Below are positions 3,798 through 29,824 of a stretch of 47,567 nt of DNA, piece after piece (within the stretch, counting starts at the first letter, position 1; every line of letters starts with the position of its first letter). This DNA comes from a virus (Duplodnaviria > Heunggongvirae > Uroviricota > Caudoviricetes): the IMG/VR virus record IMGVR_UViG_2913112809_000003; one strand, 5' to 3'. A program made the translations under genes and the position numbers. The notes beneath the pieces were generated by a model. That model had not been told where the DNA came from. It saw only the letters and a list, made by a program, of their open reading frames with translations, and searched no databases.

Positions 3798-5450
3798 TCA
3801 CCCCCAGAATGCATCACCATCGGTCATGCGGGAACGCTGACCAAAATTAATATCTCCCAGATTTCTCATTACCCTGTCTGCCAGTTGTCCGGCATCCTCG
3901 CCGGGCTTCTGGGTGATGTTAAATTCCGCTCGTATCTGATACGTGGGTTTTACTTCCACCTGGCTGATATTGCCGGGGGTATACTGAAGAGCCGAGAGAG
4001 GGTCCGAATTACCCTGCCCATGGTCTGCTGCAGGAAGTCCGTCAATGTAGGTGCGGGATTTCTCTTTTATCGCCTTAAAATCAGGTTCTTCTTTCGGCCC
4101 CAACAAAGGGTCGAGAAAAGCATCAAACTTTTTATCATCATGATTCCAGGGGAGATAACCGCGAGTGTCTTTATAGGCCTGTACAACCTGTTTCGTCAGC
4201 TCCGGATTTTGCCTGAGCAGTTCATCAAACCACTCCCCCTGACCGTTTTTCTGCGCTACCGCTCTCGCCAGCTCCGGCGACCCCATTTTTGCCAGATATT
4301 CCAGCACTTCTCGTCGGTCCTCTCGCGGATCATCCGCCAGCCCCCACTCAATGGCTTTCTGCGTTATTCCGGCAAGAACTTTTCCAAATTTCCACATCCA
4401 CGCAGCCATGTCGATCAGCGCCGGCAGGGCATCATCACGGATAAATGCCCGGATTTTTTCCAGCCCACCATTCTTAAACCAGGCCGCAAGGTCATCCGTC
4501 ACCTGTTGAATATGTGGAGCAAGTTCATTACCCAGCTGTCCGCTGATTTCATCAATTGAAGAACTCAGAACATAACGGAAATTTGACAACGCCACATGCC
4601 CCTGAACTGCGCCATCAGCCCCTTCCTTTGTCACCAGGTTATAGCGTTTCTGCTCACTGATAAGTTCCTGGAAGGTCTTTCCTGACAGACGCATCCAGGT
4701 CAGGATTTTATTGGCTTCACCACCAAATAACGCATCTGCCATCCCCGCAGCCTGCTGCTCATTCGCCACCTGCAGTAAGCGTTCAAACAAAAACTCGACC
4801 TGCTCCTGGTTGTTTTTTCCGGCCATTACGCCCGCTTTCAGCCCAAGTTTACCGAATACGTCCTGAATGGCTCCTTTGTCCTTGGCACCATTATCATCGT
4901 CAAAAACCTTGTTCCGGTATTCCTCAAACAGATCACCGATGTTTTCGCCGTTTAACCCCATCTGCCGGCCCAGTGAATCCCACGCCGCATAGGTTTCATA
5001 ATCCACCCCGTAACTCCGGGCTATCCCTGACCGCTCTGCCGTTTCCGCATTCCGGTTCAGTACCGCGCCGGCACCGGCTGCCAGCGTAAGCCCGGAACCA
5101 ACCGAAAGCCCCAGCCCGGTTTTAAGAACAGTCCCGGCCCGTCCTTTCCAGCGTTCCAGACGTTCTGCCCGCGCCAGCTTACGGTTAAATTTATCCTGTT
5201 CCCCGGTGGCATCATGAATTTTTCTGCCCAGCTTTTCATACTGCTTTCGCAGTTCGGTAATATCCTGTCCTGCCAGTACACCAGCCTGAATTTTTCGTTT
5301 CAGTACGTCCTGCTGGCGTGTCAGGCGAGCCACTTCCTGTGTTGCCCCTGATAATCCGTGCTTCAGTCCATCAACCGATTTTTTCCACGACGGATCTATC
5401 GAACCTCCGATCCGGATATTCGCTTTAAGGTTATCGCCCACCGTTGCCAT
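3798..5450 (-). CDS. tail tape measure protein
   Basis: 550-aa ORF, Ala/Gly/Leu-rich and predicted helical, directly downstream of the E/E' chaperone gene. Confidence 0.8.
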   Translation of the reverse strand: MATVGDNLKANIRIGGSIDPSWKKSVDGLKHGLSGATQEVARLTRQQDVLKRKIQAGVLAGQDITELRKQYEKLGRKIHDATGEQDKFNRKLARAERLERWKGRAGTVLKTGLGLSVGSGLTLAAGAGAVLNRNAETAERSGIARSYGVDYETYAAWDSLGRQMGLNGENIGDLFEEYRNKVFDDDNGAKDKGAIQDVFGKLGLKAGVMAGKNNQEQVEFLFERLLQVANEQQAAGMADALFGGEANKILTWMRLSGKTFQELISEQKRYNLVTKEGADGAVQGHVALSNFRYVLSSSIDEISGQLGNELAPHIQQVTDDLAAWFKNGGLEKIRAFIRDDALPALIDMAAWMWKFGKVLAGITQKAIEWGLADDPREDRREVLEYLAKMGSPELARAVAQKNGQGEWFDELLRQNPELTKQVVQAYKDTRGYLPWNHDDKKFDAFLDPLLGPKEEPDFKAIKEKSRTYIDGLPAADHGQGNSDPLSALQYTPGNISQVEVKPTYQIRAEFNITQKPGEDAGQLADRVMRNLGDINFGQRSRMTDGDAFWG

Positions 5451-25876: not shown

Positions 25877-25888
25877 ACTTTTTCTCCT

Positions 25889-25916
25889 GTAAATAAAAAA
25901 GGGCCACCAGCGGCCC
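25889..25916 (-). terminator. intrinsic terminator about 13 nt upstream of the holin start
   Basis: Hairpin GGGCC-accagc-GGCCC followed on the minus strand by TTTTTTATTT; a second hairpin AAAGGCG/CGCCTTT lies at 25940-25963. Confidence 0.5.
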
Positions 25917-25968
25917 GTAAAAAAACAGCACCCAATCAAAGGCGCCCGCAGACGCCTTTTGTGTGGTG

Positions 25969-26121
25969 TTATTCAGATTTACGCAGTAAAGGCCGGAGCA
26001 CGACCAGCGCCATTGCCACCAGCACACCATCTGCCAGTACCGACATCAGCCGTCCGGTGAAATCCACCACCACTACCAGAAACAGCAGGATGGTAGCCAG
26101 CACAAGGCGCGCACATTTCAC
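25969..26121 (-). CDS. small hydrophobic peptide (50 aa) translationally coupled to the TerB-like gene
   Basis: GTG at 26121-26119 overlaps the TerB-like stop (TGA 26120-26118) with GGAG 8 nt upstream; encodes VKCARLVLATILLFLVVVVDFTGRLMSVLADGVLVAMALVVLRPLLRKSE. Confidence 0.35.
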   Translation of the reverse strand: MKCARLVLATILLFLVVVVDFTGRLMSVLADGVLVAMALVVLRPLLRKSE

Positions 26122-26543
26122 AGGTACTGCTCCAGCGGCAACTGCAGCGCCTGAGCAATTTTCTTGAGCTGTGTCTCCTCCTCCGGACCAATGCCATCCT
26201 GGTCAGCAATATCCAGACACAGGCACAGCACATTAACTGCGTCATCAGTACCGGCAACATCAGCCAGTTGACGAAGGGCTTCGGCATTGGCAGAACGAGG
26301 TGACGCCTCATAACGGGCGCGGATATTGGCACTCATCTGGGCAATCTCACCGGAGAACGGCGCAAAGGCAGGAAGTGCTGCAATGGTTTTCTCCAGTACC
26401 GCGATTTCTTTCGCATCACAAGTACCGTCGGCGAATGCAATGGAATACGCACCCCAGACAGTCGCCTCCACTGCATCGCGGTTCTCCATTTTCTTTACTT
26501 CAGTAATGGCTTTGCGGGTTTTCTTTTTGAAAATACCAAACAT
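26118..26543 (-). CDS. TerB-domain protein
   Basis: 141-aa ORF aligning with the TerB signature regions as recalled: AFADGTCDAKEIAVLEK and LDIADQDGIGPEEETQLKKIAQALQL. Confidence 0.75.
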   Translation of the reverse strand: MFGIFKKKTRKAITEVKKMENRDAVEATVWGAYSIAFADGTCDAKEIAVLEKTIAALPAFAPFSGEIAQMSANIRARYEASPRSANAEALRQLADVAGTDDAVNVLCLCLDIADQDGIGPEEETQLKKIAQALQLPLEQYL

Positions 26544-26723
26544 CGTGACTTTTCCTTTTAGTGGGTGAGCCTGCGCCCGGGGGTGACCAGCCCACAGAGA
26601 AAGTCACACTGACCATCCCGTAAGCTCACCCCTGAAAGGCTCTGTGGTTTTTGATGTGCGCCGGGCGTGGCGCGGAAATAAAAAAGGCCCGCCGTAGCAA
26701 GCCATGAAGAAACTGAATTCAGA

Positions 26724-26750
26724 ATAAAAAAAAACCGCCAGATATGGCGG
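26724..26750 (-). terminator. intrinsic terminator downstream of the tRNA genes
   Basis: Hairpin CCGCCA-tatc-TGGCGG followed on the minus strand by a T9 run. Confidence 0.55.
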
Positions 26751-27112
26751 TTGGTCAATGCATGAAATAAATCATTTTATTGTAATAAGAATCGAGGTGT
26801 CGGGTGCCTCCCGAAATATCCATCCCTACAACAGATATTGTGATTCCCCGCTAAACCACTATATAAACCACCCTCGCACTGAGGAACACCTCTTTAGTGT
26901 TATTTACAACACCGGGATAGTGCATCATCGGCCCTGCCAGGAAATAAAAAAATCTCCACCAATAATGCACCATTCCGTTGTTGTAAAAAAACAGCACTGT
27001 GACTACAACCGAACTCAAATCATAGCCAGAGAACAGAATGTCTTTTAAAAACAACCTGCCCCCACGTAACAAAAAATACGCCAGTGCCACGATACAATAA
27101 GGCTTGTTTCTC

Positions 27113-27192
27113 TGGAGCGGGTCGCGGGAATCGAACCCGCATCATCAGCCTAGAAGGTTGAGCTGAGGTAATAGCCATTATACGATACCCGC
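27113..27192 (-). tRNA. tRNA-like gene, 80 nt, anticodon ambiguous (best fit UCU, Arg)
   Basis: Canonical T-arm GCGGG-TTCGATT-CCCGC, acceptor stem of 6/7 pairs, encoded CCA; an anticodon loop CTTCTAG is only obtained with a mismatched stem and about 5 extra nucleotides 5' of it. Confidence 0.5.
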
Positions 27193-27195
27193 ATA

Positions 27196-27271
<76 letters not shown>

Positions 27272-27439
27272 ATTGGTTCCTCGGGGGAGCGATACCACCT
27301 TGAAGAGGAGTTCCCCTCAGAACCGCAGCGTATAATAACGAATAAAAAAAACACCTCAACTGAAATAATCCGAAAATATTCTCAGGATTAGTAATTATAT
27401 CTTTTATTTTTGCTCTGTTTAAATTTCAGAAATAAAAAA

Positions 27440-28955: not shown

Positions 28956-29672
28956 TTAATTGTTACCGATTTTACTTAACATATCCGCATAAGGTTCAAG
29001 CATGGAGTCAAGTAATGCGCCATTATCCGTAAACCTCCTGGCGGCCAGGTTGCATGCTTCAATAGATTCTTCGCAGTCCTTTTCAATTTTATCCTTCAGA
29101 AGAGAATAAAGTATAAATGTTATTTTTGTAGTCTTATAGGCGTTTTGCGACTTATAAGCATTATCAAAAAATTTTATATGGTTTCCATGAATATTTTGAG
29201 ACTCAAGGTTTAAAGCGATAGAAAAACACTCTGCTCTTGGCATAATAATATTTTCAATATTGGAGCAAATAAACTCCACATTATCGCCTTCGTTAAGGAA
29301 CTCTAGCTCACCTTCTGATTTCTTATCATAGTAAGCATAAAACGATTCAAATCCCCTATCACTATCCCTTAGCAGAACAAAAAATCTATCACCAAGACTT
29401 TGCTTAATTGCCCGGGCTGTTGAGTTTATGATGAATATATCTTTATACTTTTTCTTCGCTCTCAATTCATTATTATTGAAGTCGTCTATAATCTCACTCG
29501 CTGAATATCTTTTAAGTCCATCAAGATACTGGATAGCCATTGCTTGCCCTGTAGGCAAAAAAAATGAAAATGCCCTACTGTTACTGGCGCTTATGTATTC
29601 ATTACTAGTGGCATAACACTGAGATATCGATAGTGCAATAAAAAATGAAAACAGCTTAATTAGTTTATGCAT
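28956..29672 (-). CDS. AT-rich secreted protein of unknown function (moron)
   Basis: ATG at 29672 with an AGGTGA site; N-terminal signal peptide MHKLIKLFSFFIALSISQCYA; GC content far below its neighbours. Confidence 0.7.
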   Translation of the reverse strand: MHKLIKLFSFFIALSISQCYATSNEYISASNSRAFSFFLPTGQAMAIQYLDGLKRYSASEIIDDFNNNELRAKKKYKDIFIINSTARAIKQSLGDRFFVLLRDSDRGFESFYAYYDKKSEGELEFLNEGDNVEFICSNIENIIMPRAECFSIALNLESQNIHGNHIKFFDNAYKSQNAYKTTKITFILYSLLKDKIEKDCEESIEACNLAARRFTDNGALLDSMLEPYADMLSKIGNN

Positions 29673-29824
29673 AAATATCACCTATTGAAACAACGGATTT
29701 TCAATAGTAATGATATTCATCATTCCATAATTTGATATCAGTCAATAACGAATTGACATCTTTTAACGCATAGCAGCACACATTAACCAAGATTCACTGA
29801 TGAATGCCACCTGAAATCTATCAC

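Follow-up and report, generated by a model that had tools for sequence, protein, structure and literature searches.

What does a TerB-domain protein do in the late region of a phage, where its gene overlaps that of a 50-amino-acid hydrophobic peptide and a holin gene follows? This question is raised by positions 25,969 to 26,543 of a 47,567-nucleotide (nt) stretch of Caudoviricetes DNA, record IMGVR_UViG_2913112809_000003. The whole of this stretch, referred to below as the window, served as the reference, and coordinates are window positions unless another record is named. The first-pass annotation, made from the sequence alone, saw here a module that it did not recognize and suggested, among other roles, an accessory to lysis timing. 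The module has proved to be an already catalogued one: the cassette is almost certainly the tciA-tciB pair, an accessory module first annotated in phage P1. Its novelty is not upheld, and its distribution is ordinary. This identity, combined with the mechanism proposed below, is the explanation that we prefer for the locus, and we lean modestly towards its being correct. What remains of interest is the function of the pair and, still more, a conserved leader in front of tciA, an RNA in which, rather than in the proteins, the novelty may lie.

Identity of the pair and reality of its two frames

The first gene, tciA (26118-26543, minus strand; ATG at 26543, TGA at 26120-26118), encodes a cytoplasmic TerB-domain protein of 141 amino acids, and the second, tciB (25969-26121, minus strand; GTG at 26121-26119, TAA at 25971-25969), a hydrophobic DUF3927 peptide of 50. 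According to the sequence and the list of open reading frames (ORFs), both genes, the leader, the hairpins and the holin gene all lie on the minus strand. The TGA of tciA and the GTG of tciB share three bases, as GTGA (a 4-nt overlap). A ribosome-binding site, AAGGA, is located 8 nt 5' of the tciA ATG, and a GGAG 8 nt 5' of the tciB GTG.

A profile search bears out the TerB assignment of the first-pass annotation: TciA matched Pfam TerB (PF05099) with E=6.2e-7 and 30.2 bits against a cut-off of 24.4, and matched PHROG 632 'tellurite resistance' over its full length (E=1.4e-64). Likewise, the second ORF is a small hydrophobic peptide, as judged by hydropathy and by its matches to Pfam DUF3927 (E=1.6e-14) and PHROG 1470 'TciB-like' (E=6.5e-23). 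The PHROG category is 'moron, auxiliary metabolic gene and host takeover'. NCBIfam returned only a faint DjlA match for TciA (E=0.02), and a sequence search of the PDB with TciA gave nothing significant. Identity to the P1 proteins is 86% for TciA and 48% for TciB, and the P1 record annotates tciA, tciB and tciC (P1_gp074 to P1_gp076). Megablast against phage records found P1 tciA at 80% nucleotide identity, and a record labelled Actinobacillus phage pPE4 was found to contain a cassette that is nearly identical. That record (PP818812.1, 'Actinobacillus phage vB_Apl-pPE4') is ~92% identical over 1.9 kb to the E. coli-type prophage region of the window, with TciA 98.6% identical; its stated host looks doubtful.

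The pair is widespread. Among 5426 complete E. coli genomes, at least 80% of a 901-nt region was found in 150 and some match in 526, and hundreds of E. coli genomes carry the pair under the RefSeq names 'tellurite resistance TerB family protein' and 'DUF3927 family protein'. A protein-level search located TciA in 789 plasmid records, almost all non-mobilizable and many of phage-plasmid size. Hundreds of phage-plasmids and at least 150 of the E. coli genomes have the pair; it also occurs in Klebsiella, Cronobacter, Enterobacter and relatives. A scan of genome contigs with a profile built from the TciB alignment gave nine loci.

In P1 the gene order and the stop/start overlap are as in the window, tRNA genes and a DNA methyltransferase gene are adjacent, upstream as in the window, and the function is assigned by homology only, as it is here. 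The overlap itself differs, being GTGA (4 nt) in the window and TGATG (1 nt) in P1. So does the position, which is a late slot between Q and the lysis genes in the window and the C1-controlled ban operon in P1, and the structured leader of the window is absent from P1. The third P1 gene, which encodes a 35-amino-acid peptide, is also missing: in the window, terminators and the holin gene come after tciB, the 89 nt that separate tciB from the holin ATG hold hairpins only, and no tciC-like ORF was noticed in the lambdoid loci. The P1 genes tciA, tciB and tciC were scored as non-essential in a CRISPRi screen (PMC10695390), and the operon has been lost in about half of one P1 subgroup (PMC9603915). 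Our literature search found no functional study of tciA/tciB or of DUF3927, only mentions at the level of annotation, and no report of a tellurite-resistance test of tciAB. The 'tellurite/colicin resistance' label is about twenty years old, and no experiment behind it was found in the literature; work on the pair could allow a misleading annotation to be replaced.

The pair was extracted from 15 loci, which come from the window, P1, pPE4 and E. coli chromosomes as well as from six further enterobacterial genomes or metagenome bins. The stop codon of tciA overlaps the start codon of tciB in every one of the 15, by 4 nt (GTGA) or by 1 nt (TGATG or TAATG), and tciB keeps its frame and a length of 49-54 amino acids; four of these loci do so with a TciA only 39-43% identical. 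The overlap was also seen in a plasmid prophage (TciA 34% identical) and a Klebsiella phage-plasmid, which brings the total to 17 of 17 loci examined, either nucleotide by nucleotide or by way of their annotation. The arrangement for translational coupling that was first noticed in the window is therefore a constant one. A TerB gene and a small-peptide gene meet at the same kind of junction in every homologous locus examined, a recurrence that is far beyond chance.

The two genes are under very unequal selection. The dN/dS of tciA is 0.02-0.09 (dS 0.3-0.7 among close copies), indicating very strong purifying selection. Values for tciB are 0.4-1.3 between close copies (up to 1.27) and 0.3-0.57 between distant ones, so that it is far less constrained than tciA. 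Short, opening on GTG, hydrophobic and with such a high dN/dS between close copies, the 50-amino-acid frame might be taken for a chance ORF downstream of TerB. To this explanation, which conservation refutes, we give almost no credence. The core of tciB (residues 9-35) has a pN/pS of 0.30, the values for the two alternative frames of this DNA being 0.76 and 3.0, and its DF..LS..ADG motif is invariant and carries synonymous changes. The first-pass annotation had let the peptide stand or fall with a conserved frame and a coding-type substitution pattern, and both are found. Residues D20, F21, T22, S27, D31, G32 and P44 are invariant, and the C-terminal half is variable. Moreover, an overlapping tciB follows leader and ORF in 97 of 109 viral contigs, the peptide has family matches in both Pfam and PHROG, and a profile search for it drew only 127 clusters from 1.84 billion representative proteins, essentially all of them stand-alone peptides of ~45-65 amino acids. 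Longer DUF3927 proteins were rejected as true fusions, being frameshift or chimeric calls. Judged by these patterns, tciA and tciB are both genuine genes.

Two types of TciA, class 1 and class 2, are ~40% identical to each other and share the leader and the first ~12 codons (MFG..KK..RKA). This sharing was seen in L038, L043, L051, L081 and others among the viral contigs, and in L008, L010-L012 and L024-L026. The reassortment of TciB variants with both TciA classes demonstrates that recombination inside the cassette is frequent. Among close E. coli copies, the dS of tciA (0.3-0.44) is well above that of tciB (~0.1-0.2). Decayed copies of the cassette were also encountered: at L110:4643-4800 a deletion fuses the leader to the last tciB codons at a GCTGGTC microhomology, at L009:3868-4162 (E. 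albertii) tciA is deleted and the leader joined to tciB, and in L005, at ~3980-4135, a shortened tciB comes directly after the methylase gene.

A conserved structured leader 5' of tciA

The first-pass annotation placed a terminator before the pair. A terminator is indeed present, as a terminator-like hairpin at 26686-26703 (minus strand; GGCTTGCTACGGCGGGCC followed by TTTTTT), and its placement has to be revised: the upstream terminators lie ~143 nt from the tciA ATG, and the gap is filled by a conserved, structured leader of 135 nt (26544-26675, minus strand), directly 5' of which this hairpin is found. Nearly all lambdoid loci compared have a terminator at this position, the sequence of which differs among loci. 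The leader itself is conserved in all lambdoid loci, including those with a TciA only ~40% identical, and is more conserved than TciA. The window contains a single copy of it.

A model drawn up with RNAalifold and by hand consists of a 5' hairpin and an outer helix enclosing an inner helix. The outer helix is formed by pairing of CCUUU with AAAGG in the tciA ribosome-binding site and is extended by GGUGAGC:GCUCACC. A pairing of GGGGUGA with the window-specific UCACCCC, suggested by the single sequence, was rejected, since the comparative data favour the conserved GCUCACC. Across 16 leader sequences, 92.8% of the cells were paired, compared to 39-49% when the partners were slid, and nine pairs showed compensatory changes; in 500 shuffles the observed value was never attained. 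With 64 distinct leaders the paired fraction was 96.1% (slid control 32-52%), with compensatory changes in 14 pairs, in an alignment that was fitted to a covariance model and hence leans towards structure. The covariance model gave one strong match per locus, nearly always ending at the tciA ATG. A candidate pseudoknot, CCACAGAG:CUCUGUGG, is 94% paired; as its pairs are almost invariant, it is weakly supported. Against Rfam, a scan of 6 kb at E up to 1 gave no match within 26541-26690, and a scan of 221 nt at E up to 10 yielded nothing beyond noise.

In viral contigs, a search for an exact pattern found the leader at no fewer than 120 loci. At the 109 with a readable ORF, that ORF was a class 1 or class 2 TciA or a truncated TciA, and, read by eye, all complete ORFs after the leader were TciA. 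As exceptions, one locus led into a different, signal-peptide protein, and three loci were remnants of deletion or replacement.

A second, diverged form, the 'type 2' leader, shares its outer helix with the tciA leader but differs in the inner hairpin, and always comes after a terminator. It was located at L029:7879-7993, L031:7000-7111, L046:3700-3815 and L111:7834-7948, on the minus strand at L072:157-272 and L109:5097-5212, in HK639 (NC_016158, 10028-10135, between the major tail gene and HK639_13) and in phi80 (NC_021190, 45241-45354); mEp043, mEp213, mEp237 and mEp390 have it as well. Type 2 leaders end at, or a few bases from, the ATG of unrelated cargo genes, and in several loci such a leader and its unrelated cargo genes sit 3-5 kb downstream. 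The unit of the cassette thus appears to be a terminator, a leader that masks the ribosome-binding site, cargo and a hairpin. Terminator and leader might together constitute an undescribed, portable translational switch for lambdoid cargo, responsive to temperature, an ion or a factor, with tciAB as a leader-gated, split, membrane-tethered TerB ion sensor or effector. We regard this as a rather doubtful proposal. If the leader were such a switch, it would offer a general insight into the control of phage cargo genes.

The two proteins, their genomic contexts and their possible roles

AlphaFold2 models TciA as an all-helical protein of six helices (pLDDT 88.4, pTM 0.84), in which the basic residues 1-21, MFGIFKKKTRKAITEVKKMENRD, have low confidence. 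Its best fold match in the PDB is 2h5n (PG1108; probability 1.0, TM 0.53-0.56, E=9.6e-3), which we take to be a member of the TerB-like superfamily. Two acidic DG...E motifs typical of TerB are present, ADGTCDAKE (38-46) and ADQDGIGPEEE (113-123), and D39, G40, E46, D114 and G117 are invariant in 28 homologues; the motifs are proposed to form a metal site. TciB has two hydrophobic segments, ~6-19 and ~25-43, split by DFTGR, and positive charges at both ends. Together with the positive-inside rule, the charged ends suggest a hairpin whose two termini are cytoplasmic. The fused ORF P0169 was dropped as a proxy for a complex: it is a frameshift fusion of the P1 type, seen in one assembly, and MAFFT aligned the peptide to the N-terminus.

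TciA has the Pfam domain PF05099 in common with the TerB of terZABCDEF (a weak match, at 30 bits), as well as the all-helical TerB-like fold and the two acidic motifs. However, no TerC, TerD, TerE or TerZ is encoded within ~5 kb in the window, and the partner of TerB is the multi-pass TerC in ter operons and would be the 50-amino-acid DUF3927 peptide here. Tellurite resistance by the ter system requires TerC and TerD/E-type proteins. The TerB domain, the PHROG category and the terminator-insulated cargo architecture would suit a lysogenic-conversion gene whose expression in the lysogen raises tolerance to tellurite, oxidative stress or metals. With no TerC or TerD/E-type neighbour within ~5 kb, no promoter found by the consensus scan and a name assigned by homology only, we consider such a stress gene very unlikely.

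The genomic contexts bear on the other roles. The window cassette occupies the cargo ('moron') slot that, in this lambdoid prophage, separates a block of Q, methylase and tRNA genes from the lysis genes. It shows the traits of a moron in that it lies between backbone genes, is replaced by alternative cargo in relatives and is flanked by terminators, and insertion of morons downstream of PR' has been documented (PMC4104026). Classical morons carry their own promoter; in the window cassette the consensus scan found none, and a leader that masks the ribosome-binding site is present instead. Lambdoid prophages of E. coli, Klebsiella, Cronobacter, Leclercia and Franconibacter show the order Q, optional cargo, TerB, DUF3927 and lysis cassette. 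The lysis cassette is mostly Phage_holin_8 and Phage_holin_3_7 with an M15 or GH19 enzyme; in other loci it is a class II holin/lysozyme cassette or a further holin/lysozyme set, at least three different cassettes in all. In 186-like prophages the pair belongs to the early operon and is flanked by cII/fil and replication gene A; in P1 it lies between tRNA genes of the ban operon; and in phage-plasmids, including SSU5-like ones, near dnaB or rnhA. Outside the lambdoid phages, no site of the pair adjoins lysis genes.

The slot is the one held by Shiga toxin in related phages: stx, too, lies between Q and tRNAs on one side and lysis genes on the other, and in the window terminators flank the insert. 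Phage phiP27 (NC_003356) has the methylase, tRNAs, both holins and the endolysin in common with the window, with stxA2e/stxB2e exactly at the position of tciAB. Downstream of stxB, at ~4120-4220 of phiP27, there is a frameshifted remnant of ~100 nt of the tciB 3' end (corresponding to 25969-26063 of the window), from which it follows that, in an ancestor, the stx operon took the place of the leader, of tciA and of the 5' portion of tciB.

These contexts weaken the suggestion of the first-pass annotation that the pair times lysis. As a lysis-timing accessory, the pair would modulate Phage_holin_8 and Phage_holin_3_7, for example by keeping the membrane potential stable up to holin triggering or in the manner of an antiholin, and it does lie directly upstream of the holins, on the same late transcript, in lambdoid prophages of E. 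coli, Klebsiella, Cronobacter and Leclercia; TciB is, moreover, a small membrane peptide. Nonetheless, the pair is also combined with the class II holin/lysozyme cassette, with iraM between them, and with the other holin/lysozyme sets. In some loci unrelated genes (iraM or a DUF4145 gene) separate it from the lysis cassette, and a terminator stands between tciB and the holin gene. In addition, phiP27 has the same holins without tciAB, and in P1, the 186-like prophages and the phage-plasmids the pair is far from lysis genes, so that the linkage is not obligate and a dedicated role in lysis timing is improbable. The pair's operons are lytic-cycle operons where the regulator is known (lambdoid, P1 and 186-like), and the contexts are in keeping with an accessory function that is portable and expressed in lytic growth.

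We therefore prefer a mechanism within the lytic programme. The cassette would be transcribed by read-through of the Q-modified late transcript, which is probable because no sigma-70-type promoter was found between the upstream terminators and tciA (26686 to 26543, by a crude consensus scan). Translation of tciA would be gated by the pairing of the leader with the ribosome-binding site, and tciB would be translated by coupling via the overlapping stop and start codons; TciA and TciB would thus be made together. TciB, with its two hydrophobic segments, probably cytoplasmic ends and two invariant aspartates, would insert in the inner membrane and dock the soluble, TerB-fold TciA there, as a split version of DjlA-like tethering or of the TerB-TerC pair. 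The complex may then influence the membrane of the infected cell or its ion state, in a dispensable protective or conditioning role outside the lysis machinery. The membrane-docked TciA-TciB complex and its role are the tentative part of this mechanism, somewhat short of an even bet. By way of precedent, TerB was reported to be membrane-attached and a partner of the membrane protein TerC (PMC11003894), and in DjlA the TerB-like domain adjoins a membrane helix (PMC11709261). Proteins of the DjlA and DUF533/YebE type hold a TerB-like domain at the cytoplasmic face of the inner membrane, and TciA would by analogy be docked there; one relative has a faint DUF533 match. In the DjlA/YebE type, membrane helix and TerB domain are in one chain (with a J domain in DjlA), whereas here the helix would be contributed by a separate, coupled peptide.

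Several points weigh against this mechanism. We infer the contact between TciA and TciB by analogy, and to our knowledge the TerB domain has no established biochemical role. The fast evolution of TciB and the reassortment of TciA and TciB variants argue against a tight, co-evolving interface. Of the two-helix peptide described by the first-pass annotation, the two hydrophobic segments stand in the hydropathy profile, but AlphaFold2 gives a single continuous helix from residue 2 to 49 (pLDDT 89) and no hairpin. The promoter scan used a crude consensus, so that lysogens may express the cassette, and a terminator placed between tciB and the holin gene is most easily understood if the cassette receives some transcription in the lysogenic state. 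Finally, the knock-down in P1 was without phenotype (PMC10695390), so there is no functional anchor.

In a further explanation, related to the superinfection-exclusion or abortive-infection style effector suggested by the first-pass annotation, TciB together with TciA would block DNA entry or pore formation and so confer superinfection exclusion or protection against incoming phages or colicins, akin to the phage-inhibition and colicin-resistance phenotypes of ter operons or to the small membrane exclusion proteins of other morons. We judge it unlikely. It would agree with the 'tellurite/colicin resistance' name, which derives from homology to the TerB of ter operons, and ter operons have been linked to phage inhibition (PMC9603915). 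The accessory slots from which the cassette is often lost or replaced, the flanking terminators expected of an insulated cargo gene, and the variable C-terminal half of TciB, with a dN/dS of up to 1.27 between close copies, point in the same direction. However, neither TciA nor TciB matched any model in PADLOC-DB 2.0 at E up to 1, the consensus scan found no promoter for expression in the lysogen, the P1 and 186-like pairs are in repressor-controlled lytic operons, and no experimental report was found in the literature. The pair is made directly testable by genes that are always coupled, by very unequal selection on them and by a location that is not tied to lysis genes.

Flanking hairpins and neighbouring genes

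That terminators flank the pair and that the holin gene follows, as the first-pass annotation had it, was borne out by a terminator scan, which counted nine terminator-like sites against 2.5 expected in shuffles, and by a Phage_holin_8 gene starting at 25879. Further upstream than the hairpin next to the leader, another terminator-like hairpin (26733-26752, minus strand; AACCGCCATATCTGGCGGTT, then a T-run) probably ends an upstream tRNA or short-RNA transcription unit. Just past the tciB stop codon is a hairpin at 25938-25959 (minus strand; AAAGGCGTC-TGC-GGGCGCCTTT). Read by eye, this hairpin (AAAGGCGTC...GGCGCCTTT) occurs in many loci, with a stem that varies and a pairing that is kept even where the downstream genes are different, and it may serve as a 3' stabilizer or processing site. 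The downstream terminator-like hairpin (25892-25916, minus strand) has GGGCCGCTGGTGGCCC at 25916-25901 plus a T-run and ends ~12-22 nt before the ribosome-binding site and ATG (25879) of the holin gene; a similar hairpin precedes Phage_holin_8 genes in other loci. No anti-sRNA of the AsxR or AgvB type was found 3' of the cassette.

On the 3' side, the Phage_holin_8 gene is followed by a Phage_holin_3_7 gene and an M15 endolysin gene (Pfam assignments). The 5' neighbours are tRNA-Arg, tRNA-Thr, a DNA methylase gene, a 241-amino-acid ORF, antiterminator Q, RusA and DUF968, and terminase genes are also among the neighbours within ~5 kb. The tRNA-Arg(tct) and tRNA-Thr(tgt) genes come after the methylase gene, and just upstream of them is the region's best promoter-like site, with 10 of 12 matches (tRNAs and site at 27113-27271 and 27394-27423, minus strand). 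The AT-rich stretch after the tRNAs includes a weak match to the STnc100 sRNA (26722-26920, minus strand; 20.7 bits against a cut-off of 47, E=0.26), which ends at the terminator 26752-26733 and may be a distant relative of the STnc100/PasD-type prophage short RNAs. Between Q and the methylase gene, the 241-amino-acid ORF (28956-29681, minus strand), hydrophobic at its N-terminus and weakly matched to an OB-fold (tRNA_anti-like), probably represents a further cargo gene. In another locus RefSeq lists an 'OB-fold protein' at the equivalent position, the correspondence being one of position only.

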